Assembly (NCBI GenBank): GCA_965223325.1
Contig: CBDCWI010000001.1
Location: forward strand, 1,024,001 to 1,088,000
Direction of reading: 5' to 3'
DNA length: 64,000 nt
DNA from: Candidatus Multivoradales bacterium
GTDB taxonomy: Bacteria > Acidobacteriota > Thermoanaerobaculia > Multivoradales > Multivoraceae
In this document: one piece after another, positions 20,094 through 37,660 of the stretch
Position numbering within the stretch: the stretch's first letter is position 1
Layout: the number at the start of each line of letters is the position of its first letter
The notes under the pieces: generated by a model
What the model saw: the letters and a program-made list of their open reading frames with translations, nothing else
Told to the model about the DNA's origin: nothing
Database searches by the model: none
Translations under genes and position numbers: made by a program

Positions 20094-20146
20094 AAAAAGG
20101 CGGCGCCCCCACCACTTTTGTGGTTGAGGCGCCGCTTTTTCTTTTC
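20094..20146 (+). terminator. Intrinsic terminator (potentially bidirectional)
   Basis: AAAAAGGCGGCGCC...GGCGCCGCTTTTTCTTTT stem with inner ACCAC-TTTT-GTGGT hairpin. Confidence 0.85.
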
Positions 20147-20263
20147 GCTCATTAGGTGGAGAGGCGTGGGCCGAACGCCAGGAACCCGCGGCCCGCGGCA
20201 TTCTTTCAGGGATCTCGGGTGCTCCCCGAAGCAGCGGGCCGTCACGCCGACAAAAAAAAGCGG

Positions 20264-20279
20264 TGGCACACAACTCGCA
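20264..20279 (+). promoter_or_regulatory. Sigma54 (-24/-12) promoter of the subtilase gene
   Basis: TGGCAC-ACAAC-TCGCA matches TGGCAC-N5-TTGCW with exact GG-N10-GC spacing, ~95 bp before the ATG; preceded by an A8 tract. Confidence 0.8.
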
Positions 20280-20288
20280 CTACTGGTC

Positions 20289-20338
20289 TGTCGACAGTGT
20301 TCTGTTGACAGCCGTTTGTCGACACCGGTTTGTCGCCA
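20289..20338. repeat. Four TGTCGACA-like palindromes with exact 14-bp period
   Basis: TGTCGACA 20289, TGTTGACA 20303, TGTCGACA 20317, TGTCGCCA 20331. Confidence 0.85.
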
Positions 20339-20373
20339 CCCACTTCCGCCCGCGCACTTCTGGAAGACCACCC

Positions 20374-23300
20374 ATGCCACGCACCCTCCGCAAAGCGACC
20401 ACCCGCCCCACGCCGTACTCGCTGATCGGCCGCGTCACGGTCGTCCTACTCCTGGCAGCCTCGTTGGCCACCCTCTCGAGCGCCGAGGAACCGTCGAGCT
20501 ACATCGTGCAGGCATTGAGCGACCGCCAAGCAGCGCTCCAGGTCGAAGCCCAGGGCGGCACCGTCGATCAACGGCTTGCGATCATCGATGGCGTCGCCGC
20601 CAGCCTGACCAGGGAACAGGCCGCGGCGCTCACCCTTGTTCCTGGAATCACCCTCCAGCGGAACGCCGCGGTCGAGGTCGAGAGCACAGAGCTCATTCGG
20701 CGTCGCTTCGAGATCACGAGCGGTTCCGACGACGCGATGGAGACCATCGACACTGGCTATGCCAACACCCGCTATGACAAGCATTTCGTGGGCGGCAACT
20801 ATAGTTCCGAGCGCCTCGTCGGGCTTCGATTCCGCAACCTCGACGTGCCTCCGGGAGCCAAGATCGTCAGGGCAATGCTCGAGGTGGAACTGGTATCGCT
20901 CTCCTGGAACCAGACCGAGGTCGATGTGTTGGCCGAGGCCACAGGCCATGCCGAAGCGTTCGCCGACGAGTACTTCAACCTGTCGTCGCGTCCGGTCACT
21001 GCCCACAAGGTGCGCTGGCAGTTGGCCGGTACCGCAACCCCGGGAGTTCGCACCCAGAGCGCTGACCTCTCACCTGTTGTCCAGTCGATCGTCGATCGCG
21101 AAGACTGGCAAGCGGGAAATGCGCTCGCTCTCCTTTTGCACTCCCGCGCCAGCGGCGTTCGCCCGATCGCCGCCTTCGAGGCCTGGGGCAGCGGTCAACC
21201 GGTTCTTCATCTCGAGTACCAGCTCGCCGACGCCGCCTGGCCCGTCGTGAGCTCGAGCGTTCGGCGCGGTAACGCCGATGCACTGCAACGCCAAGACAAC
21301 GGTGTCGTCTTGATGAACACGTCCGATCTCGACTTTTCGGCCGCTGACCAGGACGCGGAGATGGCCAGCACCCAGGTTGGCCTCCACTTCGAGGACCTGG
21401 CCATCCCAGCAGGCACAACGATCCTCTCTGCGAGCATCCAGTTCGAGGCAGCGGCGGCTGCCGCCGGAACAGCCTGGGTCGAGATCCACGCGGAACACAA
21501 CGCCGACGCCACTGCTTTCTCGAGCACCTGGTTCGATCTCACCAACCGACCCCGCACCCGCAGCAATGTGGTCTGGCGGCCAGCGTCATGGCAGGCACCA
21601 GGTCAGCTGCAGTTCACCGACGATCTAGGTGCGCTGGTCCAGGAGGTCGTCGATCTGCCCGGCTGGCAGCCCGGCAACGGCATGTCCTTCTTCTTCGAAG
21701 GCCTCATCGGCACACGGCCCGTCCGTTCAAGCGAGGGCGGCGGCGAGATCCAGCTGCTCGTCGAGTATGCCGGGGACTACGTCGACATCGCGGTCGACAA
21801 CTCGCACGCGGGCGCATGTCAGCAGCCGGTCGGCTCGAGCAACCTGAAGATCGTTGCGGCCTCTCTGAGCGGCGTCGACAGCGCCACGATCGAAGTCGCC
21901 GGTGGCGCGCCCAACGCTCCACTCTCGCTCGACGGCAAGGTCGTCGGTTGCCTTGACGACCATGGCTCGTGGTACGGCGAGCTCTACGGGCACCACTTCG
22001 ACACCTGCGAAGTCACCATCTCGGACGGCCTGTCCAGCATTGGCGTTACGGTTTCCGACTGCGTCGCCTGGCGCGACACCCACTTCCCTCTCCAGACCGG
22101 TGCGCGTGAGCTCCACCGCCAGGGCCTGACCGGCAGCGGCGTGGGCATCGCCTTCATCGACACCGGCATTCAGGGACGCCTCGACTGGGGATCGAACGTC
22201 TTCAAGATGGCAGCCCACTACGACGTTCTGCAGAATCGGGCCCTGCACTTCTGGACTCGCGACGCCGATCGGAACGGCCACGGGAGCCACGTCGCTTCGG
22301 TCGCCGGCAGCCAGGGTCAAACGCCAAACGGCGACTACAACGGGATGGCGCCGGAGGCCGACATCATCATGGTGCGCGCCTTCGATCGTCACGGCCGTGG
22401 CAGCTACGCCAACGTGATCGAAGGCATCGAGTGGGTGATCAACAACCGCCACGCGCTCAATATTCGGGTCCTCAACCTCTCGTTCTCCGCCCCCGCCACC
22501 TCGCACTACTGGCAGGACCCCCTGAACCAGGCGGTGATGGAAGCGTGGCGGGCCGGCATCGTCGTCGTCAGCTCGGCCGGCAACTCGGGCCCCGACCCGA
22601 TGACCATCGGCGTGCCGGGCAACAACCCCTACGTCATCACCGTTGGCGCGATGACCGACAGCTACACCCCGAACGACCCAAGCGACGATCGCATCGCCAG
22701 CTTCTCGGCCGCCGGGCCGACCTTCGAAGCCTTCGCCAAACCAGAGCTCGTCGCCCCCGGCGGGCACATGCTGGGCCTCATGAACTTCGACGCTCAACTG
22801 GCGCTCGACCACCCGACCTTCCACGACGGTCCGACGGCGGTGCCCTATTTCGTGATGTCGGGTACTTCACAGGCTGCCGCGGTCGTCAGCGGCGCAGCCG
22901 CCTTGCTTCTCCAGTCAGAGCCTGGGCTCGAACCGGACGACGTGAAGTGTCGACTGGTCGCGACCGCGAAAACGGCGACACTCGAGAACGGCGACCTCGC
23001 CTTCAGCATCTTCCGCCAGGGCGCCGGCATGCTCGACATCAAGGCGGCGGTCGACAGCAGCGCCCACGACTGTGCCAACAGCGGCCTCGACATCGACCGT
23101 GACCTCGCCGACATCGAACACTACGTCGGCCCGGTGCGATACGACAGCGCCAGCGAACAGTTCTACCTCGAGGGGCCCGACAGTTTCCTATGGAACGTCT
23201 CTGGCCCCGAGAGCGAGAGCATGCTTTGGAACGTCAGCATGCTCTGGAACAACAGCTTCCTGTGGAACGTGAACGACGTCAGTAACGAGAGCTTCTTGTG

Positions 23301-23460
23301 GAACGTCACCTACTCGGCGAACGAGGTCGATCTCGGAAGCTCGAGCATGCTGTGGAACAACAGCTTCCTCTGGAACGTCAGCATGCTCTGGAACAACACC
23401 TACACCGGCGACGCTCTGGATTCCGCGACGGCGGTCAACACCTGGGTTCCCCAGGAGTAA
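20374..23460 (+). CDS. Secreted S8 (subtilisin-like) serine peptidase with duplicated insert domain and Trp-repeat tail
   Basis: Signal peptide, I9-like prodomain (SYIVQA...LAIIDGVAASLT), triad motifs FIDTG / NGHGSHV / MSGTSQA, SAGNSG oxyanion motif, terminal VNTWVPQE. Confidence 0.93.
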   Translation: MPRTLRKATTRPTPYSLIGRVTVVLLLAASLATLSSAEEPSSYIVQALSDRQAALQVEAQGGTVDQRLAIIDGVAASLTREQAAALTLVPGITLQRNAAVEVESTELIRRRFEITSGSDDAMETIDTGYANTRYDKHFVGGNYSSERLVGLRFRNLDVPPGAKIVRAMLEVELVSLSWNQTEVDVLAEATGHAEAFADEYFNLSSRPVTAHKVRWQLAGTATPGVRTQSADLSPVVQSIVDREDWQAGNALALLLHSRASGVRPIAAFEAWGSGQPVLHLEYQLADAAWPVVSSSVRRGNADALQRQDNGVVLMNTSDLDFSAADQDAEMASTQVGLHFEDLAIPAGTTILSASIQFEAAAAAAGTAWVEIHAEHNADATAFSSTWFDLTNRPRTRSNVVWRPASWQAPGQLQFTDDLGALVQEVVDLPGWQPGNGMSFFFEGLIGTRPVRSSEGGGEIQLLVEYAGDYVDIAVDNSHAGACQQPVGSSNLKIVAASLSGVDSATIEVAGGAPNAPLSLDGKVVGCLDDHGSWYGELYGHHFDTCEVTISDGLSSIGVTVSDCVAWRDTHFPLQTGARELHRQGLTGSGVGIAFIDTGIQGRLDWGSNVFKMAAHYDVLQNRALHFWTRDADRNGHGSHVASVAGSQGQTPNGDYNGMAPEADIIMVRAFDRHGRGSYANVIEGIEWVINNRHALNIRVLNLSFSAPATSHYWQDPLNQAVMEAWRAGIVVVSSAGNSGPDPMTIGVPGNNPYVITVGAMTDSYTPNDPSDDRIASFSAAGPTFEAFAKPELVAPGGHMLGLMNFDAQLALDHPTFHDGPTAVPYFVMSGTSQAAAVVSGAAALLLQSEPGLEPDDVKCRLVATAKTATLENGDLAFSIFRQGAGMLDIKAAVDSSAHDCANSGLDIDRDLADIEHYVGPVRYDSASEQFYLEGPDSFLWNVSGPESESMLWNVSMLWNNSFLWNVNDVSNESFLWNVTYSANEVDLGSSSMLWNNSFLWNVSMLWNNTYTGDALDSATAVNTWVPQE
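23182..23397 (+). repeat. 8 copies of the hexapeptide S-[FM]-L-W-N-[VN] in the subtilase tail
   Basis: SFLWNV x4, SMLWNN x3, SMLWNV x1, with synonymous codon differences between copies. Confidence 0.95.
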
Positions 23461-23600
23461 CTCTCGAGAAACGGAACCAGAAGATTCACAACCAGGTCGC
23501 AGCGGGACAGTTCCTTGCGGCCGCAACGTAGACGACGAACCCCGCCCGGCTGTTTCCTCTTCAACTCGGGTTCTTCCCCTCACCCCCTTCATTTCCTTTT

Positions 23601-23637
23601 GCCCCGGTGACCTTCTGGTCGCCGGGGCCTTTTCTTT
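23601..23637 (+). terminator. Intrinsic terminator after the subtilase gene
   Basis: GCCCCGGTGACC-TTCT-GGTCGCCGGGGC followed by CTTTTCTTT. Confidence 0.8.
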
Positions 23638-23653
23638 GGGGAAGGGCTCTCCT

Positions 23654-26600
23654 TCAGAGTGCGGCGAGGCGATCGGTATCAGAGAGGTTGGTGTCGCCAT
23701 CCGTGGGTTCTTCCTCCGGGGCGAACGAATCGTTGGCCGCCACCTGCGGTGGACCCAGGCGCTCGAGACGGCGACGATAGGTCGTCGTCGTCACACCGAG
23801 AATCGCGGCGCCGCTGCGCCGGTCAACCTCCGGGCGGCGCGCGACTTCTTCCAGCAGGAGACCTTCGAGCAGACCATCGAGGTCAACGCCTTCGGCCGGT
23901 CCACCGTAGCCCGGTCCGGCGATCACCCGCAGGCGGGATCGAATCGCCGTCCACCACGGCGGACGCGGCGACAGACCAGCATCGGCCCGCAGGTTGGCTT
24001 TGCTGCGCCGACGGCGGAAGGTCGTCTCTGCCATACCCAGACGCGCCGCAGCACGGCTCGCCGTGCCGTTTTCGGCATCGTCGGCGGCGAGCACCAGGTC
24101 ATCGGCAAGCCACTCGCCCAGCGGCAGGAGCGGATGCTCGCCGGCCACCATGCCGTCGATGCGCTGTGCGAGCAGTTCACGAATTGACGAAACAGCCTCG
24201 CTGCGGGTCACCGGTTCTTCTTCGTGCCCCTCGGCACGGTTGACGGGCGCACCAGGGGGCGCGCCCTCGGTCGCTCCTCCTATGACCGGGCCCCCAGAGG
24301 CGATCATGTTCTCAGTCTCTCTGCCGTCGAGGCGCAGTGCTTCGGGTCCGATGGCGCTACCTTCAGCCAAAATCACCGCCTGCTGCACCCGGTTCTGTAG
24401 CTCACGTACGTTGCCGGGCCACGAATGGCCCACCAAGAGCGCCTCGGCCTCGGGCGTCAAGGAGACCACCGGCTTGGAGTAGAGCAGCGAGTAGGTCCTC
24501 AGGTAGTGGTAGGCGAGATGCAGAATGTCGTCGGGACGCTCACGCAGAGGCGGCAGTCCGAGGCGGACGACGTTGAGACGATAGTAGAGGTCCTCGCGAA
24601 AGCGACCGGCCTTGACCTCGGCCATCAAATCGCGGTTGGTCGCCGCCACCACGCGCACGTCGACGGAGCGAGTTTCGGTCGCACCGACTCTACTGAGTTC
24701 CTTCTCCTGAACGAAACGCAGCAGCTTCGACTGCACCTCGAGCGGCAGCTCGCCGATCTCGTCAAGAAAGACGGTCGCGCCGTCGGCCTGCTCGAGGCGA
24801 CCAATACGGCGCTGGTCGGCGCCCGAGAATGCCCCCTTCTCATGCCCGAAGAGCTCGCTTTCGATCAAGGTCGCTGGAATCGCCGCACAATCGACGACCT
24901 GCAAGAGCCGGTTGCGACGGCCGCTCGAGCGATGCACGGTACGTGCAACCAGGTCCTTTCCGGTCCCGCTCTCGCCGGTGATCAAGACCGTCGCGTCGGT
25001 CGGAGCGACGCGGCGCACGGTCGCCATGACACTCTCCATCGACTCAGAGCGGTATTCGAGATTGGCCTCTTCGACCGCCTGGCGCAGTCCCTCGACCTCG
25101 GCACGTAGTCGTTGGGCCTCGAGCTCACGCCGCTCCTGCTCGAGCGCTGACAACTTGGCGCGATCGAGCGCGACGGCGAGCTGCGAGGCCAGCGAACGGA
25201 AGAACACCACGTCGGTCCCGTCGACGAGAAAGGTCTCCGTGCTGCCTTCGAGATAGATGGCGCCCAGGCAGCCTTCGCCGACCGACAGCGGAATGGCACA
25301 ACAGCTTCGTGCGTCGCCGACGCCGACACCCCCGTCACTCGCCACCAACTCGACGGTTGGTCGCCCCAGCGCGACGGCGCGCTGGGCCAGATCGGGCGAG
25401 GACACGATGAGCTCGTCGGTCTCTTCTTCGTGACCGCGGCCATGGATCAGGTGCAACTCGAGAGGATCGGAATCTTCGCTCGAGCATTCGAACAGCCCGA
25501 TCTGATCGGGCTTGAGCCCTACCTCGAGACGCTCGACCGCCAGCCGGGCGAGGTCGTGGTAGCTGCTACTCGCCGCGACCACTTTGACGATCTCGGCGAG
25601 CAATTGCATGTTTCGATAGTCCTTCGCCATGTTGCCGGTGAAGACACCGCTCAGTGCATCGGGATCGCCTGCCTTCTCGAGATCTGGCGACCAGTGCACG
25701 ATGGTCTGGCCACTCGAACGACGCGCCTGGAAGAGAGCCTCTTCGGCCTGGACGGTGAGCTCGAGAGGCTGTTTGATCAAGCCCGACTCGGGATCGAGCG
25801 TCGCAATGGCTGCCCGGAAGCGGAGGGTCAACGACTCGCGGTGATACCGCCGTCCCTGCAGCTCCTTGACCAGCTTCTCGGCCACCAGGGCGCTGGCGTC
25901 GCGATTGGCGTCTTCGAGCACCGCGGCAAAGATCGCACCGCCGTAGCGGGCCGCAAAGTCGGACTTGCGTAGCGCCGAACGGAAGGTGAGAGCGATCTCG
26001 CGCAAAACCCGATCGCCCTTCTGATGACCGAAACGCTGGTTGACCATCGCAAAATCATCTGGGCTCACCAGCAGCAGACTCAGCGGGAGATTGCCCTTTG
26101 TGGCACGCGAGAAGGCACGGGCCAGCCGACCCTGAAGCTGCGCTCGACCACCGACCCCGGTCACCGGGTCGCTCAGCACACCCACGACTTCACGCACCTG
26201 GGCCGCCAGTCTGGCCGTCGAACCAATCGAGAAGCGCCACCACAGAAGGTCTGGGTTGGCCTCGATCTGGCTGTCGAGGTCTTTGTCTCGCTCGAGCGGA
26301 CAGGTGCCCGGCGCGAAGCGAAGCCCGATGAGTACCGTCGTCGACGCAATCAGAAGCTCGACCGAGTCACCGCGCCGGCGCCCCCGCGCCTCGGCATCGT
26401 CTCCTGACGCGCGGCGCGGCCGCACGACCTTCCGGAGGATGCAGCAGTCCGGGTCACTGCTCGGCAACACTTCGATGCGCTGTGCAGCGCCGATTGAATC
26501 CAACCCGCTGGGCAACCCTTCGGGACCTCCCTGAGCGTTGCTCTCCGAGGCCAGTTCGGGCGGCGGTGCGCCGCCACTGTTGAGCCACAGCGCATCGAAG

Positions 26601-26701
26601 CCGGCGCCCTCTCCATTGGGTACCCAGACCGTCACCGACAAGACCTTGCCGTGGTCACGCACCGCGCCGAGGTAGCTCCGAAGAATGTCAGCTGGGCCCA
26701 T
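23654..26701 (-). CDS. Sigma54-dependent enhancer-binding protein: degenerate GGDEF - GAF - AAA+ - two HTH-like motifs
   Basis: SDPVTG...RKSDFAARYGGAIF; GAF (AIPLSVGEGCLGAIYLE); GESGTGKD, GAFSGA, LDEIGE, FREDLYYRL, WPGNVRELQN; AAARLGMAETTFRRR and GAAILGVTTTTYRRR. Confidence 0.93.
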   Translation of the reverse strand: MGPADILRSYLGAVRDHGKVLSVTVWVPNGEGAGFDALWLNSGGAPPPELASESNAQGGPEGLPSGLDSIGAAQRIEVLPSSDPDCCILRKVVRPRRASGDDAEARGRRRGDSVELLIASTTVLIGLRFAPGTCPLERDKDLDSQIEANPDLLWWRFSIGSTARLAAQVREVVGVLSDPVTGVGGRAQLQGRLARAFSRATKGNLPLSLLLVSPDDFAMVNQRFGHQKGDRVLREIALTFRSALRKSDFAARYGGAIFAAVLEDANRDASALVAEKLVKELQGRRYHRESLTLRFRAAIATLDPESGLIKQPLELTVQAEEALFQARRSSGQTIVHWSPDLEKAGDPDALSGVFTGNMAKDYRNMQLLAEIVKVVAASSSYHDLARLAVERLEVGLKPDQIGLFECSSEDSDPLELHLIHGRGHEEETDELIVSSPDLAQRAVALGRPTVELVASDGGVGVGDARSCCAIPLSVGEGCLGAIYLEGSTETFLVDGTDVVFFRSLASQLAVALDRAKLSALEQERRELEAQRLRAEVEGLRQAVEEANLEYRSESMESVMATVRRVAPTDATVLITGESGTGKDLVARTVHRSSGRRNRLLQVVDCAAIPATLIESELFGHEKGAFSGADQRRIGRLEQADGATVFLDEIGELPLEVQSKLLRFVQEKELSRVGATETRSVDVRVVAATNRDLMAEVKAGRFREDLYYRLNVVRLGLPPLRERPDDILHLAYHYLRTYSLLYSKPVVSLTPEAEALLVGHSWPGNVRELQNRVQQAVILAEGSAIGPEALRLDGRETENMIASGGPVIGGATEGAPPGAPVNRAEGHEEEPVTRSEAVSSIRELLAQRIDGMVAGEHPLLPLGEWLADDLVLAADDAENGTASRAAARLGMAETTFRRRRSKANLRADAGLSPRPPWWTAIRSRLRVIAGPGYGGPAEGVDLDGLLEGLLLEEVARRPEVDRRSGAAILGVTTTTYRRRLERLGPPQVAANDSFAPEEEPTDGDTNLSDTDRLAAL

Positions 26702-26711
26702 CAGAATCTCC

Positions 26712-29700
26712 TCAGGTCCACACCAGTTGACCGATGTCGAGCGACGAGCTCACTTCGATACGTTTCTCGGCGGCGAGGTCACGCAGGCAACCGGTGTCGA
26801 GATCGGAACTCACGATCCAACCGCCGTCCTCTTCTTGGGTGCCACGAACGCCAACCCAGGCGTTGCGTCCGCTGGTCTTGGCGACGTATAGCGCTCGGTC
26901 GGCGATGTTGACCACCTGCTCTGGCTCGACCACCGCCGGCATCTCGGGATGGAACGGGAAGAAGGCGTATCCGATCGAGCAGCTCAAGCTGCAGTGGCTG
27001 CCGTCGGCCATGACCAGTTCCTCACCGGTAAAGGCAGCGCGCAAACGCTCAGCCATCGACTCGGCGTCCGCGGGCGAAACATCGCGACTGACCACCAGGA
27101 ACTCGTCGCCGCCCCAGCGAATGAGGGTATCGCTCTTTCGGCAGACTCCCTGGAGGACATCCCGCATCTGCAGAATGGCCCGATCACCTGCCGCATGGCC
27201 ATGGTCATCGTTGATCTTCTTGAGGCCATCGAGGTCAATCATCAGGAAGAGAAGGTCCAGCTTGCCCTGACTCTCGTCCACAGCTCGGCGACCGTCGGCG
27301 TAGCCCCGGCGAAGCTCCTCGAAATCCTCCTCGAGGCGACTCATCAGGTAGCGCCGGTTGCGCAAGCCGGTCAACGCATCGCTATTGGCCGCTTCATGCA
27401 GGTCCTGGGTGCGGAGACGGACCTCCTCTTCGAGCCGACTGCTGTACTCCTTCTCGCGCATCATCTTGCGTCGGTGGGAATGTAGAACCCCAGCGAAGAC
27501 ACCGCAAACAGCACCGAAGTAGAAGAGATAGGCCCACCAGGTCTTCCACGGCGCCGGCACGACACGCACTCCCAGCGATGCACCCTCCTCGTTCCACACA
27601 CCATCGTTGTTCGCAGCGCGCACTCTCAAGGTGTAGTGACCGCCGTCGAGGTTGGTGTACGTCGCGCGGCGCTCGTTGCCAATCGATATCCACTCGCGAT
27701 CGAAGCCCTCGAGCTTGTAGGCGAATTGATTGCGCGACGGAGCGAGGTAGTCGAGTGCGGCGAACTCGAACGAAACGACGTAGTCTCGATAGTCGATTTC
27801 GACCTCGTCGGTGAGCCAGATCGGTTGCGGCAGTTCCACCTCACGGTTGAGCTTGCGAAACGAAGTGATCATCACCGGCGGCACGTGGCGATTGGCGTCG
27901 ACCTGGTCGGGCCAGAAGGTGTTGAACCCCGCACTGCCGCCGAAGAACATCTCGCCGCTGGCAGCGCGGTGATAGGCGCCGAAGTTGAACTCCTCTCCCT
28001 GCAGACCGTGCTCACGGCCGTAGTTGGAGAAGTGCTCGCTCACCGGGTCGAAACGCGACAAGCCACCGTTCGAACTGATCCACAAGTAACCCTGGTCATC
28101 TTCGAGCAGACCGTAGACCGTCTGGTCGGCGAGGCCATCTTCGGTGGTGAAACGTCTGAATACCGGTCGTCCCGCCTCGCGGTCGCGCCTCGACCAGGCC
28201 GAGAGCCCGAACTGTGACCCGATCCACAGCGTGCCGGTTCGGTCGATGAGCAGCGACGTCACGCGGTCGTCGCTCAGGCTGTAGGGGTCGTCGGGATCGT
28301 GACGAAAGTGCTGCGTTTTGCCGGTGCGCGGGTCGAACAAGTCGAGGCCTCGGCCCATGGTTCCCAGCCAGAGGCGACCGTCTCGGGAGGCCAGGATGTC
28401 GGCAACCAGGTCGGAGCCCAGGGTCGTTTCGTCTAGAGGGTCGTTCAGCCACGACTCGAAGGTCTCACTGGAACGCTCGAAGCGACTCAAGCCGCCACGG
28501 AACGTTCCGACCCAGAGGTCGCCGTGCGGATCTTCGTAGAGGGACATGACGCCGTTGGCCGGTAGCTGGCCACTGCCCGGCGGCCCGGCAACGAAGCGGT
28601 CGAAAGACCTGCCGTCGGAACGCAACCGGTTGAGGCCATGATCAAACGTACCCACCCAGAAGTCGCCTCGACGATCGGCAAGTAGCGCCATCGTGCGATT
28701 GTCAGAAAGGCTCGCCGGATCTTCCGGATCGTGCCTCCATACCGCCGTGACGTCCCGCTCGTCGTTCATGCGGTTGAGACCACCGCCGAGAGTTCCGATC
28801 CAGAGGTCTCCCGAGGCGTCGGTAGCAAACGATGTCACCGCATTGTGGGACAGCGACCCGTCCTGGGCGGGATCATGCGTGTAGTGGGCGAAAGCGTTGG
28901 TGAGCGGCGCCGTCCGATCGAGGCCGCGCTGGTGAGTTCCAATCCACACCACGCCACCCCGATCCTGATAGAGGCGCTTGATCAGGTCTTCGGCGAGGCT
29001 GTTGGCACGGTTCGACTGGTGGTAGTAGCGCGCGAAGCCCGTGGCTCCAGCCGATCGCAGATTCAGGCCGCTATCGGTTCCGACCCACAGTGCGCCAGCT
29101 CGGTCCTCGAGAACCGCGTGAACGGCGTCGTTGCTCAGGCTGGTCGGATCGTCGTCCAGGTGGCGAAGGTTTTCGACCACCTGGCCTGCCCGGTCGAGGA
29201 CGAAGAGTCCGTGGCCAACCGTGCCGACCAACAGCCGTCCGTCTTCGCTGGCGAACAGGGAGCGCACTTCCGTCGCTCCCTCGAGGCGCACCGCTTCGAC
29301 CACACCGTCGCGCGAGTCCAGGCGGAACAGACCGTTTCGAAGCGTGCCCACCCACAACGTGCCGCGCCCATCCTCGAGTAACGCAAGCACGTGTGGCCCG
29401 CGGTCGAAGCCCGGAATCGCGACGGCTTCGCACGCCCGCGTCCGCGGATCGAGACGGCTGAGCCCGAGCTCGCTTCCGATCCAGACGTCTCCACTCGCTC
29501 CGACTTCGACGGCGCGGACGTCTTGCGGAGCTTCTGGATCACGGTTTCCAATGCGCTCGAAGGAGTCTGTCGTCGGATCGAAACGGTTGAGTCCGCCCTG
29601 GTTCGTGCCCACCCAGAGTACTCCGTCGTCCCCTTCGTCGATCGCCCACACCCAGTTCTGACTGAGACTCGTCTGGTCGTCGGGGCGGTGCTCGTAGACC

Positions 29701-29990
29701 CTGAACTCCTGACCGTCGTAGCGGTTGAGGCCATCCTCTGTACCAATCCACATGAAGCCCAGGCGATCTTGATGCAGCGCCATGATCGAGAGCTGCGAGA
29801 GGCCGTCCTCGTTGGTCAGGTGATCGACGCGCAGCGCCTGCCCTTCGACCGTCGGCACGATGACATTGCTGGTGGCAATCGCCGCAACCCAGAGCATCAC
29901 CCAGCCCAGGAAACGCAGCATGGTCGCGGCGGGCCCCGAGAGGCCCGAGGCTCCGCGCGATGCGGGCGAAGGAGTGGCGAGTCGATGCAT
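26712..29990 (-). CDS. Membrane sensor diguanylate cyclase (Reg_prop beta-propeller repeats + Y_Y_Y + TM + GGDEF)
   Basis: Signal segment, ~14 D..G.LW.GT..GL repeats, YKLEGFD.EW...YTNLDGGHYTLRVRA, PWKTWWAY TM, DLDGLKKINDDHGH, RKSDTLIRWGGDEF; alternative start ATG 29921. Confidence 0.94.
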   Translation of the reverse strand: MHRLATPSPASRGASGLSGPAATMLRFLGWVMLWVAAIATSNVIVPTVEGQALRVDHLTNEDGLSQLSIMALHQDRLGFMWIGTEDGLNRYDGQEFRVYEHRPDDQTSLSQNWVWAIDEGDDGVLWVGTNQGGLNRFDPTTDSFERIGNRDPEAPQDVRAVEVGASGDVWIGSELGLSRLDPRTRACEAVAIPGFDRGPHVLALLEDGRGTLWVGTLRNGLFRLDSRDGVVEAVRLEGATEVRSLFASEDGRLLVGTVGHGLFVLDRAGQVVENLRHLDDDPTSLSNDAVHAVLEDRAGALWVGTDSGLNLRSAGATGFARYYHQSNRANSLAEDLIKRLYQDRGGVVWIGTHQRGLDRTAPLTNAFAHYTHDPAQDGSLSHNAVTSFATDASGDLWIGTLGGGLNRMNDERDVTAVWRHDPEDPASLSDNRTMALLADRRGDFWVGTFDHGLNRLRSDGRSFDRFVAGPPGSGQLPANGVMSLYEDPHGDLWVGTFRGGLSRFERSSETFESWLNDPLDETTLGSDLVADILASRDGRLWLGTMGRGLDLFDPRTGKTQHFRHDPDDPYSLSDDRVTSLLIDRTGTLWIGSQFGLSAWSRRDREAGRPVFRRFTTEDGLADQTVYGLLEDDQGYLWISSNGGLSRFDPVSEHFSNYGREHGLQGEEFNFGAYHRAASGEMFFGGSAGFNTFWPDQVDANRHVPPVMITSFRKLNREVELPQPIWLTDEVEIDYRDYVVSFEFAALDYLAPSRNQFAYKLEGFDREWISIGNERRATYTNLDGGHYTLRVRAANNDGVWNEEGASLGVRVVPAPWKTWWAYLFYFGAVCGVFAGVLHSHRRKMMREKEYSSRLEEEVRLRTQDLHEAANSDALTGLRNRRYLMSRLEEDFEELRRGYADGRRAVDESQGKLDLLFLMIDLDGLKKINDDHGHAAGDRAILQMRDVLQGVCRKSDTLIRWGGDEFLVVSRDVSPADAESMAERLRAAFTGEELVMADGSHCSLSCSIGYAFFPFHPEMPAVVEPEQVVNIADRALYVAKTSGRNAWVGVRGTQEEDGGWIVSSDLDTGCLRDLAAEKRIEVSSSLDIGQLVWT

Positions 29991-30271
29991 CGAGGCAGAA
30001 ACGGCAGGAGGGGACGAAACAGGGGAAAGGTGGTGTCGACCCAAGGCTCGGGTCGAGCAAGGACCCTAAATTTTAGCGAAAAACTAGTTTTAAAACAATA
30101 CGAATCATGACAAAGCGGCCGAAAAAGCGGCTGAAGGCCTTCTCGGCGCTCTCCGGACCAGGAAGCGATTCCTGGGGAGGGATGACTCACCATTTACATG
30201 GATGCATGAAGGTCTCTAGACTGGGGCGTTCTCTTTTGATGACTTTCCCCGCGATCCCAGGAGGTCCCCCT

Positions 30272-30724
30272 ATGTTCCGCCGCGACACTTCCGAGCCCGA
30301 TACCGAGCCCACACCGCCCCCGACCACCAACAAGGCTCAGGCAACCTCCACCCCTGCTACGCCCACCACCCCAGCGGTCCGCACCACGGCATCACCGACA
30401 GCGACCGCCCGCCTCGGGCCATCGCTGCGCTTCAAGGGCGAAGTCCACGGAGATGAAGACCTCCTGATCGAAGGCAAGCTGGAAGGCGAGGTCCGGCTGA
30501 GCGGGCAGCGAGTCACCATAGCGCCGCAAGCCCGCATCGAAGGCGACGTTCACGCCGAAACCATCGACGTTCGCGGCGAGGTGAAAGGCAACCTGTTCGG
30601 CAAGAGCGAAGTGATCGTCGAACCCGAGGCGAAGGTCGACGGCAACCTCACCAGCCCGCGCGTCAACCTGCAGGAGGGTTGCCGGTTCCAGGGTTCGATC
30701 GACATGAGCGGCACAAAACCCTGA
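30272..30724 (+). CDS. Bactofilin (polymer-forming cytoskeletal protein)
   Basis: GGAGG RBS; Pro/Thr-rich N-tail; LGPSLRFKGEVHGDEDLLIEGKLEGEV...GCRFQGSIDM. Confidence 0.93.
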   Translation: MFRRDTSEPDTEPTPPPTTNKAQATSTPATPTTPAVRTTASPTATARLGPSLRFKGEVHGDEDLLIEGKLEGEVRLSGQRVTIAPQARIEGDVHAETIDVRGEVKGNLFGKSEVIVEPEAKVDGNLTSPRVNLQEGCRFQGSIDMSGTKP

Positions 30725-30811: not shown

Positions 30812-31018
30812 CGTGTTTCTACGAAAACTCGTGGACTTGACTGTTTTCAGCGAGCTGAACCATCTGACAACTGCTGATTTGTGGCAAACTGGCTTTATCT
30901 GCACTCCCTGATATCCAGAGGACCACTCGATCTACGAGTGGCCCCGACCCGCTTCCGGCCCTCCTGCAGGGGTACTCGAAGCATCGATCGCGCCGGCAGA
31001 TCGGCGCCTGGTTCTTCT

Positions 31019-33916
31019 ATGACGCCTTCCTTGTCGCATCTCGAGGATAAGTACGAGATTCTCGGCCGCATTTCACAACGCGGCATGGGGGCTGTCTATC
31101 GCGTGCGCCACCGGCTGCTCGACGAGGTGCGTGCGGTCAAGATCCTGCGCCCCGACCTGGTGACGACCGGCGCACTGCGCGACCGCTTCCTCTACGAGGC
31201 GCGCACCGCGACCCGTCTACGCCATCCGAACGTCGTTCAGGTCCATGACTTCAGTATCGACGAAGAGGGAGCCGGGCTGATCATCATGGAGTACATCTCC
31301 GGCTGTACCCTCGAAGACCTGGGCCGGCGCTTCGGCACACCGCCGATTCCTCTCGCCGTCGAGGTCGCACGCCAGAGCCTGCGTGCACTCGGGTACCTGC
31401 ACCGTCGCGGCACCGTGCACCGTGACGTCTCCCCCGACAATTTGATGTTGACCCGCGACGTCGACGGTGAGCCGCTGATCAAGCTCATCGATCTCGGCAT
31501 CGCGCGCAACTCACGAGACGACGCAGTAGAAACCGACGGGCTGTTCATCGGCAAGGTGCGTTTCGCCTCACCGGAACATTTCTCCGACGGGGAACGTGGC
31601 GGAAACCCGATTGATGAGCGCAGCGATCTCTACTCACTCGGCGTGGTGCTCTTCCAATGGCTGACCGGTGTCTGCCCGATCGAAGGCAGCTCCCTGGAAG
31701 ACCTCGCCAACGGCCACCTTTACTACCCGCACCGTGCGTTCGACTCGGTCGACCCCGCCGGCAACGTCCCGGCAGAGCTTCGCCAGCTGATCGAGCAACT
31801 CCTGATCAAGAACCCCGATCGCCGGCTACAAACCGCCGAAGAAGCCCAGGCGCTGCTCGACGAGTTGACGGGACGCTTCACGCACATTCCGCTGGTTCCG
31901 CTGACCGAGGAGCTCCTCGGCCCGAACCCTCGCGACGAACCGGCCGTCGAACTGACCGAAGTGTTCGACCGCGACGACAGTCTCAACGGAGCCCGCCAAC
32001 GCGAAGACACCCTCCCCGACCCGCTCTGGCCGTCGCAGATCGGGGGCTGCTTTCCCGAGACCGAAGTCACCGCACATCAGCCACGCACACGAGCCCCGCT
32101 CGAGGGAAATGCTCACGAGTACCTGGCCGAAGCCCACGAGGCTCTCGAGAGCGACGAGCTCGAGCAAGCCGAAACCAGCATTGCCGCCGCCCTCGACCGA
32201 GCTCCCTTCGACGAAGAAGCCGTCCGCCTCATGCAGGAGGTCGCCGTCTGTCTCCATCAAGCCGAGCTTCAATCCGCTGTCGAGCGCAGCTTGACCGCCA
32301 TCGAAGGGAGCATCATGTCGGGCGAACTAGGCAGGGCGCACTTCCAGATCGCCGCTGCGAACCTGCGCTATCCCGACGACGATCGCTTCGCCTTTCTGGC
32401 CAGCTACCTCGAACACGTCGCCGCCGAGCGCGCACGCCAACTAGAGAGTCGCCCCTTTGAGCTGCCGCCATCGGAGGAGCCTGATCCAGCAAGCGAGCGG
32501 GCTCGGGAACTCACAACCACAAGCGACTCTGCCAAGCCCCAATCCAAGCAGTGGGCAATCGTCGGCCAACCAGTCGATCACCAGGCCACATCAGGCGTCC
32601 TGGGAGAAGCGCCGCTTGAAGCCAGCGCCGCCCGCGCGACGCCCCCTGTCGTCAGCGAGCGTGCCCACCCGAACGAGCCAACCGAGATCTCGGCCCGCGA
32701 CCCCAATGGCGGCCTCGACGACGGCCCCATCGACCTCGAAGAGGTCGAGCTCAGACCGCTTCACACCACCGGCGAGCGGTTGATCAGCGGCTTCGAACCA
32801 GCCGACGCTCCCGCGACCTGCAGCCTGCCGGTTACCCTGCGCGATGCTCTCGAAGAGATGCAGCGCGCAACGCGTCCCCCCGACCCTCAGGCAATTCGTG
32901 CGCGCCGCATCAGCACCCTCCTCGTCGATAGCGAAAAGGCGCTCGAAGCCGGTGACCTCGAACGCGCACGCGGCCTTGGTCACATCGCTCTGTCGATGGA
33001 CGAAACCAATCCGGCCGCGACGAACCTCGCGCAACGCGTCGAAAGAGCGCTACTCGCCGCCGAGGAGGAGCGACAAGAGGCACTCGAGTGCACCATTCAA
33101 TCCGTCGCACTCCCGCAGGCCACCGAGCGCGGAGCCCCCGAAGCCACTGGAGCCGCTGGATCTCCGGGTGAGCTCCTCACCACCGAGGAAAAGCCACCCC
33201 CAGTCCAACAGATCACTGTTTCCGAGCTCGCCGCCCCACCGCAACCCAAACAAGAAGCGAGCAGCGAACCAGCCCCCGAGCTGCAACCAACGGCCAAGCA
33301 TCGACTCGAGGACGTGCCCACCGCCGAGGTCCCGCAGGCGCGCGCCGAAGAAAACGCCAACCTCGACCAACGTCGACACGCCATCAAACGAGCTCTGGCC
33401 GTCGGCGACCTCTTGACCGCTCGCGCCGCCATCGACAGCGCCAGAAGAGAGCACGGTCCAAACGCCTTCGAGGCTCTCGAACAGGAGCTAGAAAAGCAAA
33501 CCCACCTGGAAAGAACCCAGGCCGCCAACGAGTGCATCGAGCTCGGCCGCACCGCAATGATGCAGGCACGCCATGAACGCGCCGTCGACGCCTTCGAACG
33601 CGCAGCCCGTCTGGCGCCAGGAAACCGTCAGGCCCTGGAGCTCCTTTCCAGGTCCCGCCAGCTCCTTCTCATGGACTACGTAGAGTCCCGCGGGCAGAGC
33701 TTCCTGCGCACGATCCGCAAGATAGAAAAGCTCGCCGATCGCGGCCGCCTGGACCGCGCCCTCGACCTACTCCGAACCGTAGAGGAACAAGACCCCGAGT
33801 CCAACCGCTTACGCCCCCTACGCACCCGCCTCGAGCACCAGATGCGCGTCGAACGCGGCGCCCAACAGAGGCCGAGCGGCGCCGCCTCACGCCTGGCAGC
33901 CTGGTTCCGCCGCTAG
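31019..33916 (+). CDS. Hanks-type Ser/Thr protein kinase with TPR-like repeats
   Basis: RGMGAVY, AVK, HPNVV, HRDVSPDN, IDLGIA, ASPE, SDLYSLG; C-terminal TPR-like helices and Pro-rich linkers; no TM evident. Confidence 0.92.
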   Translation: MTPSLSHLEDKYEILGRISQRGMGAVYRVRHRLLDEVRAVKILRPDLVTTGALRDRFLYEARTATRLRHPNVVQVHDFSIDEEGAGLIIMEYISGCTLEDLGRRFGTPPIPLAVEVARQSLRALGYLHRRGTVHRDVSPDNLMLTRDVDGEPLIKLIDLGIARNSRDDAVETDGLFIGKVRFASPEHFSDGERGGNPIDERSDLYSLGVVLFQWLTGVCPIEGSSLEDLANGHLYYPHRAFDSVDPAGNVPAELRQLIEQLLIKNPDRRLQTAEEAQALLDELTGRFTHIPLVPLTEELLGPNPRDEPAVELTEVFDRDDSLNGARQREDTLPDPLWPSQIGGCFPETEVTAHQPRTRAPLEGNAHEYLAEAHEALESDELEQAETSIAAALDRAPFDEEAVRLMQEVAVCLHQAELQSAVERSLTAIEGSIMSGELGRAHFQIAAANLRYPDDDRFAFLASYLEHVAAERARQLESRPFELPPSEEPDPASERARELTTTSDSAKPQSKQWAIVGQPVDHQATSGVLGEAPLEASAARATPPVVSERAHPNEPTEISARDPNGGLDDGPIDLEEVELRPLHTTGERLISGFEPADAPATCSLPVTLRDALEEMQRATRPPDPQAIRARRISTLLVDSEKALEAGDLERARGLGHIALSMDETNPAATNLAQRVERALLAAEEERQEALECTIQSVALPQATERGAPEATGAAGSPGELLTTEEKPPPVQQITVSELAAPPQPKQEASSEPAPELQPTAKHRLEDVPTAEVPQARAEENANLDQRRHAIKRALAVGDLLTARAAIDSARREHGPNAFEALEQELEKQTHLERTQAANECIELGRTAMMQARHERAVDAFERAARLAPGNRQALELLSRSRQLLLMDYVESRGQSFLRTIRKIEKLADRGRLDRALDLLRTVEEQDPESNRLRPLRTRLEHQMRVERGAQQRPSGAASRLAAWFRR

Positions 33917-33932
33917 CGCACAGCCCCTTCAT

Positions 33933-34474
33933 CAAGAGTAGCGTCGGTTGAACCCCGATAGAGCGAAGAGGTGGAGCGCGCTCGGCGCGCCCAGAGCAGT
34001 CAGCCTCCGGAGCAACCTCTCCGACGCAAGCGCGAACGCGCGAGCATCAATGCGCGATGTGCGAAGCACGAGCGCACAACCCCTCTCACCAAGAGTAGCG
34101 TCGGTTGAACCCCGGCAGGGGCGAGGCGGTGGAGCGCGCTCGGCGCGCCCGGAGCAGTCAGCCTCCGGAGCAACTTCTCCGACGCAAGCGCGAACGCGCG
34201 AGCATGAATGCGCGATGTGCGAAGCACGAGCGCACAACCCCTCTCACCAAGAGTAGCGTCGGTTGAACCCCGATAGAGCGAGGAGGTGGAGCGCGCTCGG
34301 CGCGCCCGGAGCAGTCAGCCTCCGGAGCAACTTCTCCGACGCAAGCGCGAACGCGCGGGCATCAATGCGCGATGTGCGAAGCACGAGCGCACAACCCCTC
34401 TCACCAAGAGTAGCGTCGGTTGCACCCCGATAGGGCGAGGAGGTGGAGCGCGCTCGGCGCGCCCGGAGCAGTCA
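33933..34474. repeat. Intergenic tandem array of ~3.5 structured 157/158-bp units
   Basis: CAAGAGTAGCGTCGGTTG starts at 33933, 34090, 34248 and 34405; copies near-identical, with multiple internal palindromes. Confidence 0.95.
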
Positions 34475-34722
34475 GGCGGGAAAGGCGCAGGATCCAGCTT
34501 GGCGCGCTGGACGGCCCGGGGCGGATCAGGACGCGCAAGTGTCTGAGCGAAGCCACCCTCTAGCATCCAAGTCCATCCAAACGTCAACGGCCCCCCAGCC
34601 GGCACTCCACCCTCAAAAAGGCGCAGCGAGTTTTGCGCGGCCCCGCCCCGGGCCGTCCAGCGCGCCTAGCTGGATGCGCCGGCCGCCGCTCCGGGGAGCC
34701 GAGCGCGCTCCGCCTCCTGCCC
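34433..34722. repeat. Long imperfect inverted repeat (REP/MITE-like)
   Basis: 34484-34524 pairs with 34643-34680; 34433-34458 pairs with 34698-34722. Confidence 0.85.
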
Positions 34723-34789
34723 GGCGCAGTCCACCACCATCACAATCCCGCCCGCCTCGCTTCTCGACACCGTCACCACCCTCATCCAA

Positions 34790-34884
34790 ACCCAGGACCC
34801 AGAACCCAAGACCCAGAACCCAAAACCAAGACCAAAACCAAAACCAAGACCAAAACCAAAACCAAAACCAAAACCAAAACCAAA
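34790..34884. repeat. Simple sequence repeat: (ACCCARR)5 then (ACCAAR)10
   Basis: Read directly; immediately downstream of the stop of the cNMP-FHA gene. Confidence 0.95.
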
Positions 34885-34901
34885 AAAAATCAACCAAAAA
34901 A

Positions 34902-35675
34902 TCAACCAGAACGATTCCTGAAAACAAACCGCACGCTACCGAACGCCACCTCGCAGCCATCGACCAGAGGCGTCGGCGTCTCCGCCGCGATCCGTGTCCC
35001 AGCAACCAACGAGCCGTTAGACGCCCCCTCCTCTTCAATCAACCACCAGATGTTCTGGCGATGCTCCAGCCGCGCATGCCGCCGCGACACCGTCCGCTCC
35101 CCCTGAAGCCCCGTCAGATCGATGTCCGGCAGGATTCCGCGGTGTGCGCTGGCCCGTCCAATGGTCAGTTGGTCACGGTCGCCGAGCTCGTAGACCTCGC
35201 CAGTCATCGCCACCAACGCAGCCTGCAAAGGAGCAGGAGCCGGCGGCACCGCCGACACACTCTCGGAAGTCTCGACCGACTTGCCACGCGTCGTCCCACC
35301 GACCTCACGTGACCAGGCCCGCAGATTGCGAGCGCGGACTGCCAACGTATGGAGCATCTTGAAGGGCAGATCAGCATCCTGTTGCGCCAGAGAACGTAGC
35401 GTTTCGCGAGAGATCGGCAACGCGCGCACCGGTTCGAGCGCCCGCGCCGAGAAGACGTAGGCGTCTTCACACAAAACTCCCACCTCGCCAACGAAGTCGC
35501 CGCGCGCCGCGATTCCGAGGGCGAGAGGCGTGCCGTGTTCGCGCTCGATCAGGATCTCGAGCGAGCCTGACTCGACAACGTAGAGCCCCCGACAAGGATC
35601 ACCCTCGCGCACCAGCCACTCGCCTTCGGCGCATTCGACCGGCTCGCCACCGAGAGGGCCTCGCTCCTCCGTCAT
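34902..35675 (-). CDS. Cyclic-nucleotide-binding domain + FHA domain protein
   Basis: LVREGD...LYVVESGSLEI...GDFVGEV...SARA; FHA motifs IGR, TVSRRHA, ASNGS. Confidence 0.88.
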   Translation of the reverse strand: MTEERGPLGGEPVECAEGEWLVREGDPCRGLYVVESGSLEILIEREHGTPLALGIAARGDFVGEVGVLCEDAYVFSARALEPVRALPISRETLRSLAQQDADLPFKMLHTLAVRARNLRAWSREVGGTTRGKSVETSESVSAVPPAPAPLQAALVAMTGEVYELGDRDQLTIGRASAHRGILPDIDLTGLQGERTVSRRHARLEHRQNIWWLIEEEGASNGSLVAGTRIAAETPTPLVDGCEVAFGSVRFVFRNRSG

Positions 35676-36916: not shown

Positions 36917-37094
36917 GGGAATCCCAGATTGCTGGTTCCCGAGCGCAGCTCGGGGAGAACCCGGCGTCAACCCGCCGGGCAAGAATCTTGGAATTCTATC
37001 CTCTGAATCCCTCTTTTGGTAGGTCTGCGCTGCCACGAGTCTCCTCGACCAGGGCGGACCGCCTGGCGGTTGCTCGCCTGACTCAGGCGGCCAG

Positions 37095-37547
37095 TCAGCC
37101 AGCCAGGTGGTCGAGGCGCACGATCTCCACCGGCGGCCGGAAGAGACCGGTCTGGAAGGCCTCGCGCAGCTTGGCCAGATGCGGTTGCTGCCCGTGTGCC
37201 TCGAGCGCAGCGGCGTTTTCGTAGACCTCGAAAAAGAACAGCTTCGACGGTTCCTCGGCGACTCGGTAGATCGCATAGGTCAAAACGCCCGGCTCATGCT
37301 CCTCGACGGCGCCAGCCAAGGCCTCGAGCGCCGCAAGGGCTTCGTCTTGGCGCTCTGGGTCGAGAGCGAAGGAGGCGGTCTGGGTGATCGCATCGGCACC
37401 CGCCCGGGCCGCCGCCGGGCGAACGAAGCCGAGCGTCGCCGCTCCCAGGCCGGCAGTGCCGATCCCGGCGATACGAAGCGCCACACGCCTCGAAAGCACG
37501 GAGCCCGATGAGTTGGAAGGTCCGGGGGACAGAGGAGGGTTGGACAT
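37095..37547 (-). CDS. Antibiotic-biosynthesis-monooxygenase (putative quinol monooxygenase) family protein with Tat-like signal
   Basis: LSRRVALR + hydrophobic stretch + ARA; EPGVLTY, FFEVYENAAALEAH..QPH; GGAGG RBS. Confidence 0.85.
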   Translation of the reverse strand: MSNPPLSPGPSNSSGSVLSRRVALRIAGIGTAGLGAATLGFVRPAAARAGADAITQTASFALDPERQDEALAALEALAGAVEEHEPGVLTYAIYRVAEEPSKLFFFEVYENAAALEAHGQQPHLAKLREAFQTGLFRPPVEIVRLDHLAG

Positions 37548-37660
37548 GGTGGTTCCTCCGCTGCATCGCCAGGTGGGCCGACGCAGACGCTCAGTGGACG
37601 TGTGTTCTGATAGGGCCGTTGCCGCCGCAAGCGTACAGGAAGCGCTCTTTAGTGCGCGGC

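Follow-up and report, generated by a model that had tools for sequence, protein, structure and literature searches.

Can an exported protease report its own presence to the bacterium that made it? The question is raised by a locus in a 64,000-nucleotide stretch of a Candidatus Multivoradales genome (Acidobacteriota, Thermoanaerobaculia), the whole of which is called the window below. Here a secreted subtilase with a tryptophan (Trp)-repeat tail is encoded next to a periplasmic propeller sensor with a diguanylate cyclase output and a sigma-54 activator. A first-pass annotation of the sequence had proposed a feedback circuit in which the protease cuts Trp peptides from its own tail, the sensor recognises them, and cyclic di-GMP (c-di-GMP) made by the sensor acts on the activator, which in turn drives the protease gene. 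The comparisons reported here indicate that sensor, activator and sigma-54 very probably control these exported proteases. The complete chain, that is, a self-contained protease induction circuit in which the tail serves as the ligand, has in our estimate a probability of about 0.4.

Gene organisation of the locus

Three large genes take up positions 20263-30044 of the window. The subtilase gene (20374-23460, plus strand) encodes 1028 residues when read from the ATG at 20374. Since the promoter-like site described below falls within the longest open reading frame (ORF), which opens at a GTG at 20263, this ATG is taken to be the true start, and the N-terminus that follows it is signal-peptide-like. 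Next come a propeptide-like segment, a region of about 450 residues, a Peptidase_S8 domain (about 22132-22977; Pfam, E 4.6e-48) and a 92-residue tail. The protein belongs to peptidase family S8, as judged by the legible DTG, HGSH and GTSQA motifs and by D94, H134, S330 and N235 (construct numbering), which are invariant in alignment A1. Its closest solved structure, Tk-SP (3afg and 9ues, E 1e-45), matches residues 575-881 only; this is the catalytic domain, and the tail is covered by no solved structure. The N-terminal half gives no Pfam family, even at E 0.1. Two tandem copies of a domain of about 190 residues, with motifs like GxDDAxE...SSDLEx, lie in this half (20680-22000) and in that of the paralogue described below (11400-12700 of locus L081), and are absent from most relatives, which have about 570 residues.

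The sensor cyclase gene (26712-29990, minus strand, starting at ATG 29990 or ATG 29921) and the activator gene (23654-26701, minus strand, ATG at 26701) are convergent to the subtilase gene. The stop of the sensor ORF at 26712 and the activator ATG at 26701 leave a gap of 10 nucleotides (nt), in agreement with the tightly coupled operon that had been described at first pass. The sensor consists of a membrane anchor, a periplasmic domain of a double propeller and Y_Y_Y, a transmembrane helix, a coiled coil and a GGDEF domain (Pfam: Reg_prop, E 1.3e-57; Y_Y_Y, 1.5e-19; GGDEF, 1.3e-31). The active site (A-site) of its GGDEF domain, which follows the GG[DE]EF pattern, is intact (RWGGDEF), with RKSD five residues upstream, and cyclase activity is predicted.

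The activator has an N-terminal region, a degenerate GGDEF domain, a GAF-like domain, an AAA+ domain with a GAFSGA loop and two helix-turn-helix (HTH)-like C-terminal motifs. Pfam assigns GGDEF (E 1.4e-25), Sigma54_activat (1.1e-68) and AAA_lid_14, while the GAF_2 match (E 2.4e-6, 28.2 bits) lies just below the curated cut-off of 28.6. The motifs GESGTGK, DEIGEL and GAFSGA, together with the two conserved HTH-like motifs, mark the protein as a bacterial enhancer-binding protein. Its GGDEF domain holds RKSDFAARYGGAIF (RKSD...RYGGAIF), in which the inhibitory site (I-site) RxxD is kept and the A-site is dead. This is the pattern of degenerate-GGDEF receptors, from which binding of c-di-GMP is predicted. 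The distinction drawn at first pass between an intact sensor GGDEF and a dead activator GGDEF that keeps RxxD is thus seen in the sequences themselves (RWGGDEF against GGAIF, both with RKSD). No NCBIfam equivalog reaches its own cut-off for the subtilase, the activator or the sensor of the window.

The module recurs across genomes

Homologues of the subtilase were collected with the catalytic domain and tail as the query. Among 8000 candidates scored, 3097 proteins matched at E ≤ 0.001, and the names given to the homologues by their sources were only 'S8 family peptidase' or 'serine protease AprX'. A survey of loci covered 185,579 species, each represented by a single genome. Of its 636 pattern matches, 587 encoded relatives, and the 76 loci that were kept derive from Acidobacteriota (Thermoanaerobaculia), several gammaproteobacterial orders, Chloroflexota and others. 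When the six-frame ORFs of these loci were compared with the window's own domains, Reg_prop was found in 41 loci, Y_Y_Y in 37, the AAA+ domain in 15 and the activator C-terminal region in 11. Of the 61 loci whose downstream flank measured 1.5 kb or more, 31 had a Reg_prop gene that started no more than 1 kb downstream of the last subtilase. Clustering of the neighbours revealed no other family in more than 9 of the 76 loci; malate synthase, hydrolase and MFS neighbours were considered as parts of the module and rejected as housekeeping genes in clade synteny. Subtilase paralogues often form tandem arrays, with as many as 8 complete genes at locus L059.

With regard to wiring, Pfam analysis of 42 of 52 selected neighbours (10 being left out for size) distinguished three types. 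Type A, found in the window and at loci L008 and L012, combines a propeller-GGDEF sensor with an activator composed of a degenerate GGDEF (GGDEF*), GAF and AAA+. Type B loci (L013, L018, L039, L041, L052, L021, L030, L053 and L076) have the gene order activator with a receiver domain (REC; about 950 residues), subtilase, propeller-PAS-histidine kinase, and REC-(PAS)-GGDEF-EAL protein, the kinase often bearing REC and Hpt as well. In type C (L010, L026 and L074) a propeller hybrid kinase occurs with a plain NtrC-type activator (REC-AAA+-HTH_8). Because other loci pair a hybrid kinase with a receiver-bearing activator, the wiring from sensor to activator to protease is well supported, and the existence of such phosphorelay variants makes a path from the sensor cyclase via c-di-GMP to the activator I-site credible.

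The linkage also holds when the sensor is taken as the starting point. For five sensorless loci with full flanks the genomes of origin were searched, and all five contain Y_Y_Y matches (12 in total). Nine of these 12 proteins score 852-1016 bits on a profile of 41 linked sensor domains, for which the linked set gives a median of 984 bits (n=49); the other three reach 625, 409 and 135. Five of the nine high-scoring sensors directly adjoin another W-tail subtilase and three the same activator family, so this sensor subfamily is largely dedicated to the module. It should be underlined that co-occurrence at the level of whole genomes is uninformative and carries no argument, since Y_Y_Y is common in the phylum (102 of 151 genomes, a tally that includes the unpublished genome G029). 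The first-pass prediction that W-tailed S8 proteases would be linked to Reg_prop/Y_Y_Y sensors, sigma-54-like sites and the GGDEF*-AAA+ family was borne out at the locus level in several phyla.

A family of activators with a conserved I-site

The 12 type A and type B activators that were aligned form one orthologous family over their whole length. The Arg and Asp of RxxD are invariant in all 12, the GGDEF A-site is degenerate in every one of them (GGAIF, GGAVF, TGSQL, AASYL and others), and the C-terminus with two HTH-like motifs is common to the set. At loci with a kinase sensor the activator has a receiver, whereas at loci with a cyclase sensor it has none and the domain with the c-di-GMP site is all that is left. 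This alignment is the strongest support for the earlier I-site idea. A c-di-GMP relay through the dead GGDEF domain is in our judgement probable, and the family is predicted to be a new class of c-di-GMP-responsive sigma-54 activator.

At the type A locus L008 (9015-9450), a sigma-54 site is followed by a small ORF and then the subtilase. The ORF carries the PilZ-like motifs RxxxR and NxSxxG, as read by eye, and may be a further hint of c-di-GMP involvement.

Promoter-like sites upstream of the subtilase genes

The sigma-54 (-24/-12) promoter-like site TGGCACACAACTCGCA (20264-20279, plus strand) has the GG-N10-GC frame, differs from TGGCAC-N5-TTGCW by one mismatch and ends 95 nt ahead of the ATG at 20374, as expected of the near-consensus promoter that had been noted at first pass. 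Its frame, its upstream position and the presence of rpoN in the genome make use by sigma-54 a prediction. The pattern itself is common and, taken alone, not enriched: the genome holds 179 sites at ≤1 mismatch vs 274 for a reversed-pattern control, and the window 13 sites at ≤2 mismatches vs 23 expected. The weight of TGGCACACAACTCGCA comes instead from its position and orientation, from a second site at the paralogue and from enrichment in relatives. With regard to the latter, the region from -350 to +150 of 109 subtilase ORF starts was searched with GG/GC fixed and ≤2 mismatches, and a sense site was found in 37 of 109 genes vs an antisense site in 4 of 109. Perfect matches numbered 11 in 2.28 Mb (both strands), 7 of which lie within the 54 kb around subtilase starts. 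First or single subtilase genes had a sense site in 24 of 60 cases (antisense, 3 of 60), and later array genes in 13 of 47. These proportions indicate that sigma-54 control of the subtilase genes is frequent, although the majority of the genes have no detected site.

Further repeated elements occur close to the promoters. In all eight type B loci displayed, inverted repeats like AAAATATGGCG/CGCCATATTTT precede the promoter by about 60-150 nt. The expression CG[CT]CAT[ATG][AT]TTT occurs 27 times in 1.16 Mb, and about 22 of these occurrences (counted by eye) are ≤300 nt upstream of subtilase genes. CGCCATWWTTT-type sites are also present at loci without an activator in the fetched flank. The A/T-rich inverted repeat AAAATATGGCG/CGCCATWWTTT precedes subtilases at loci L006, L013, L018, L036, L039, L041, L052, L076, L014, L030 and L049, and is likely to be a binding site, at present a candidate, of the REC-GGDEF*-AAA+ activators. 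In the window, which lacks this motif, four palindromic TGTYGMCA octamers with 14-nt spacing (20289-20338) start at the predicted transcription start. This motif has 6 matches over both strands vs 0.02 expected and no others in the window, and the array could be an operator or a downstream activator site. The fold of the leader RNA was not significant (z -1.2).

A second sensor-subtilase pair in the same genome

The genome to which the window belongs (6.69 Mb in 2 contigs) carries rpoN once, exactly two Y_Y_Y sensors and two W-tail subtilases, which form two pairs, and a single full-length protein of the activator family. The second pair, located on the other contig (L081, 7482-14223), has no activator gene beside it. 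Its sensor is likewise a Reg_prop/Y_Y_Y/GGDEF protein, 40% identical to the first, with RWGGDEF, and is divergent from its subtilase. The latter has 1026 residues, a (QGFAWD)x8 tail and the end INTWVPQE, and a sigma-54-like site, TGGCAAACCATTTGCT (L081, 11061-11076), ends 67 nt before its ATG. Since there are two sensor-subtilase pairs and one full-length activator, a single activator may integrate the two sensor cyclases and drive both protease genes.

The Trp-repeat tail

The tail of the window subtilase (23182-23457, plus strand) consists of eight S[FM]LWN[VN] units with irregular spacers and ends in ...VNTWVPQE. The units, eight as had been reported at first pass, occupy residues 937 to about 1010 of 1028, and NTWVPQE forms the last residues. 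Among the 120 best homologues, 118 have at least four Trp in their last 110 residues and 103 end in W[VIALM]x[QPEDN][EQHDN], the remaining 17 being cut within the repeats, minor variants or read-through. Trp-centred repeats with an [IV]NxWVxQE end were likewise seen in 102 of 116 subtilase genes in the 76 loci. The units are near-identical inside any one protein and vary between proteins (GFLWSD, GYLWTD, ANPWTD, GSPWVS, GYIWNL with an 11-residue period, and others). Protein P0155 carries its tail internally, with further domains after it.

A profile made from the tail alone matched 336 cluster representatives at E ≤ 0.001 among 1.84 billion. Among the best 150 matches, 54 of the 65 with at least 450 residues have an S8 domain (44/55 and 10/10). 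Six of the 11 without an S8 assignment were viewed by eye, the other five being left uninspected; one of the six is of the trypsin family and five are without S8, and all six carry other kinds of repeat and no end motif. Three matches of 44-140 residues were tried as separate genes and rejected, being pieces of subtilase genes from contigs about 1 kb long; this leaves no stand-alone tail gene among proteins of that size in this search. As the tail is bound to S8 domains and the short matches are only fragments, it is an uncatalogued module of this subtilase clade with no separate gene. In 151 genomes of the phylum the profile matched 26, including unrelated hexapeptide repeats, and about 8 reach the end motif (the tally includes the unpublished genome G054).

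Two observations touch on the sequence of the units. The common unit, D-G-[FY]-L-W-x, is similar to the signature of Reg_prop blades, G-x-L-W-[VI]-G-T (alignments A2 and A4), a likeness that may be superficial, as Pfam Reg_prop gives no match on the tail. At L012 (7020-7190) of Thiocystis violacea there is a relic whose start is signal-peptide-like and which, in a different frame, encodes three Trp units and VNVWVNQE; it looks like a subtilase gene that collapsed through internal deletion.

The codons of the units tell of their age. The four SFLWNV units of the window tail have four different DNA versions. Among 107 tails that hold four or more identical hexapeptides, the median share of copies distinct as DNA is 75%, and all copies are DNA-identical in just 2 of the 107. 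Pooled over these tails, period-6 units differ at a proportion of 0.56 of synonymous sites (pS) and 0.094 of nonsynonymous sites (pN). Because the codons are scrambled while the peptides stay constant, the units are old and their identity is kept by selection, not owed to recent duplication. Conservation within a protein amounts to 0.55-0.65 for positions -4 to +2 relative to the Trp vs 0.38-0.46 in the spacers (109 proteins with spaced units, some of them near-duplicates), and the cores either abut or have variable spacers. This pattern of selection points to a specific partner. In an AlphaFold2 model of the catalytic domain and tail (20-sequence alignment), the catalytic domain was modelled well, whereas the predicted local distance difference test score (pLDDT) was 25-45, with no secondary structure, between construct residue 433 and the C-terminus, residue 435 being the first of the tail. 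Taken together, the codon scrambling, the free spacers and the low pLDDT favour, over a solenoid, a tail modelled best as a disordered chain of short linear motifs.

The sensor and its possible ligand

An AlphaFold2 model of the periplasmic domain of the sensor (pLDDT 92.4) superposes over its full length on that of BT4663 (4a2l/4a2m), a hybrid two-component system (HTCS) sensor of Bacteroides, with a template modelling (TM) score of 0.84-0.86 and 28% identity; a sequence profile of the sensor found 4a2l in the PDB at E 1.9e-181. Two seven-bladed propellers and Y_Y_Y lie between two membrane segments, as is typical of HTCS sensors. The fused kinase-receiver-AraC output of the latter is absent, the output being GGDEF with no AraC domain by Pfam. 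Across phyla the periplasmic domains of the sensors are 28-47% identical.

In the proposed circuit, binding of a ligand in the periplasm would switch on the sensor cyclase, c-di-GMP at the activator I-site would free the AAA+ motor, and the motor would open the sigma-54 promoters of both subtilase genes. The likeliest ligand would be the protease's own disordered tail or pieces cut from it. The sensor would then report that active protease has been exported, giving positive feedback, and the signal might stay inside the envelope of a single cell or pass from cell to cell. A ligand made up of the tail or its fragments is the most economical account of the pattern of selection on the tail, and we hold this idea at somewhat less than even odds. 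A more elaborate version, in which the protease carries its own inducer, seems unlikely. Here the tail would be a polyprotein whose identical Trp hexapeptides are cut off by the enzyme itself or a sibling, a propeller of the glycan-sensor type, re-tooled for peptides, would bind them, and the sigma-54 activator would receive the signal through c-di-GMP or, depending on the lineage, through a phosphorelay, so that more protease is made, with paralogous tail-sensor pairs providing separate channels. Quorum sensing between cells, as envisaged at first pass, is likewise unlikely.

Several observations weigh against the complete circuit. No sensor is directly adjacent in 30 of the 61 loci with flank, and 72 of the 109 subtilase genes are without a sigma-54 site at ≤2 mismatches. 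There is no CGCCAT-type upstream activator sequence before the window promoter, the sole candidate site there, the TGTYGMCA array, lying downstream. Arrays of up to 8-10 subtilases occur per single sensor, some lone subtilases stand beside two sensors, and tail types and sensors are not one-to-one. The low pLDDT is no proof that the tail is disordered, and the only characterised ligand noted for the sensor fold is a glycan (heparin for BT4663, according to the title of the PDB entry). Moreover, the co-variation of repeat and sensor that had been proposed earlier was not found beyond phylogeny. In 30 adjacent pairs r was 0.36 for tail and sensor, 0.46 for tail and catalytic domain and 0.62 for sensor and catalytic domain, and the partial r for tail and sensor given the catalytic domain was 0.11 (permutation p 0.15), with a metric that is crude and with three pairs, including the window's own, dropped for lack of an alignment anchor. 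The GFVWSD unit persists at 56% sensor identity, which fits a conserved partner and equally a structural or cleavage constraint. The circuit of the first-pass annotation is partly supported, in its wiring, by the co-occurrence and the phosphorelay variants; cleavage of the tail by the protease itself, recognition of the peptides by the propeller and quorum sensing are hypothetical steps.

The same circuit could operate with a sensor that reads a glycan or peptides from foreign proteins, after the manner of polysaccharide utilisation, the tail then being no signal and either anchoring the protease to the cell surface or a substrate or keeping the enzyme latent until it is trimmed. We give this a substantial, if minority, chance. 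The fold shared with the BT4663 heparin sensor fits it, as does the other literature on the sensor domain, which in its accessible parts concerns glycan sensing or the lipopolysaccharide A-LPS. The missing co-variation, a sensor-domain identity across phyla compatible with one conserved ligand, and tandem batteries of proteases that look like output and less like a source of signal also agree with such a ligand. On the other hand, it leaves unexplained why peptide-identical units show saturated synonymous change, why their cores abut or have free spacers, and why this sensor subfamily is found beside these proteases even in the sensor-side search; nor is any glycan-active enzyme or transporter recurrent in the 76 loci.

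The tail might also have nothing to do with the sensor and be a C-terminal propeptide, or else a signal for secretion or sorting, with NxWVxQE as its tag, in which case adjacency would reflect shared regulation. The end motif is indeed the most conserved part (102/116), and in P0155 further domains follow the tail. We nevertheless find this improbable, as N-terminal signal peptides are present in these proteins anyway, genes for secretion or for sorting enzymes do not recur near the subtilases in the 76 loci, and a tag needs no 4-19 identical Trp units under selection. Identical cores with variable spacers recall the multi-core precursors of RiPPs (peptides made by the ribosome and modified after translation), and the tail could be one that needs chemical modification, e.g. 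Trp cross-linking. A RiPP cluster has a dedicated modifying enzyme beside the precursor; no radical-SAM, P450, cyclase or other maturase family is recurrent in the 76 loci, and none lies near the window gene, which makes this idea very improbable. Least credible of all is that the genes are chance neighbours with a fortuitous promoter match. That the promoter pattern alone is not enriched in the genome would allow for it, but it is contradicted by all the comparative results (linkage, promoters, pairs, activator family and sensor-side search).

Other features of the window

A strong hairpin terminator (23601-23628; 12 pairs, 10 of them G-C, and a T-run) separates the convergent genes. A hairpin with a T-run 3' of the upstream gene can be read in the sequence at 20094-20135 on the plus strand; it is weaker, and a hairpin scan detected only partial stems there (20120-20135 on the plus strand and 20115-20100 on the minus strand). 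Of the two terminators said at first pass to bracket the protease gene, the one at 23601 is therefore clear and the one at 20094 is seen by the scan only in part. The upstream hairpin is predicted to insulate the protease promoter. Beside the sensor operon lie a bactofilin gene (30107-30724) and a region encoding many Ser/Thr kinases, FHA, cyclic nucleotide-binding and WD40 proteins (30881-43314). Another sigma-54-like site, TGGCACAGGCTGTGCT (13747-13762, minus strand, one mismatch), falls within the 5' part of a long ORF for a methylmalonyl-CoA-mutase-like protein.

Relation to known systems and significance

The locus resembles the Bacteroides HTCS not only in the periplasmic domain of its sensor but also in that the sensor is encoded beside secreted degradative enzymes presumably under its control. 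It differs in that these enzymes are proteases, where those of Bacteroides are glycanases, and in its output, which runs from a GGDEF domain (elsewhere a hybrid kinase) to a sigma-54 activator, whereas the HTCS has a fused AraC domain.

FleQ, VpsR, FlrA, Nla24 and BerB bind c-di-GMP at the AAA+ or REC-like region. The activator described here would join them as an NtrC-family AAA+ protein under c-di-GMP control, but with a separate degenerate GGDEF, bearing an invariant RxxD, N-terminal to the AAA+ domain. PelD and PopA are degenerate GGDEF I-site receptors with a dead A-site and a conserved RxxD; here, such a domain is fused to a sigma-54 AAA+ motor and genetically paired with a dedicated sensor cyclase.

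Multi-copy peptide precursors occur together with subtilases in yeast alpha-factor and Kex2, in the cyanobactin PatE with PatA/PatG, and in the Bacillus Phr peptides. These systems and the present one have in common an S8 protease and short peptides that are repeated identically in tandem and selected at the peptide level; in the present one, unlike in the others, precursor and protease would be one polypeptide and release is hypothetical. The PatA/PatG model scores 46 bits on the window subtilase vs a cut-off of 421.

In the literature available in part (supplements excluded), we found nothing on W-repeat subtilases, protease-linked propeller sensors or fusions of GGDEF to sigma-54 activators, and the module is apparently widespread but undescribed. 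It is present in hundreds of species of Acidobacteriota, Gammaproteobacteria, Chloroflexota and others, many of them found in sediments or marine habitats, settings in which the turnover of nitrogen and carbon is driven by extracellular proteolysis, and it offers a testable rule for when such bacteria make proteases. It also represents a natural case in which one sensor-activator link relies on phosphotransfer in part of the lineages and on a private c-di-GMP relay in the rest. Should the sensor prove to be the partner of the tail, Gram-negative-type bacteria would have a new kind of peptide signalling. On the more elaborate version above, it would be peptide autoinduction in diderms with the signal precursor and the processing enzyme as one polypeptide.

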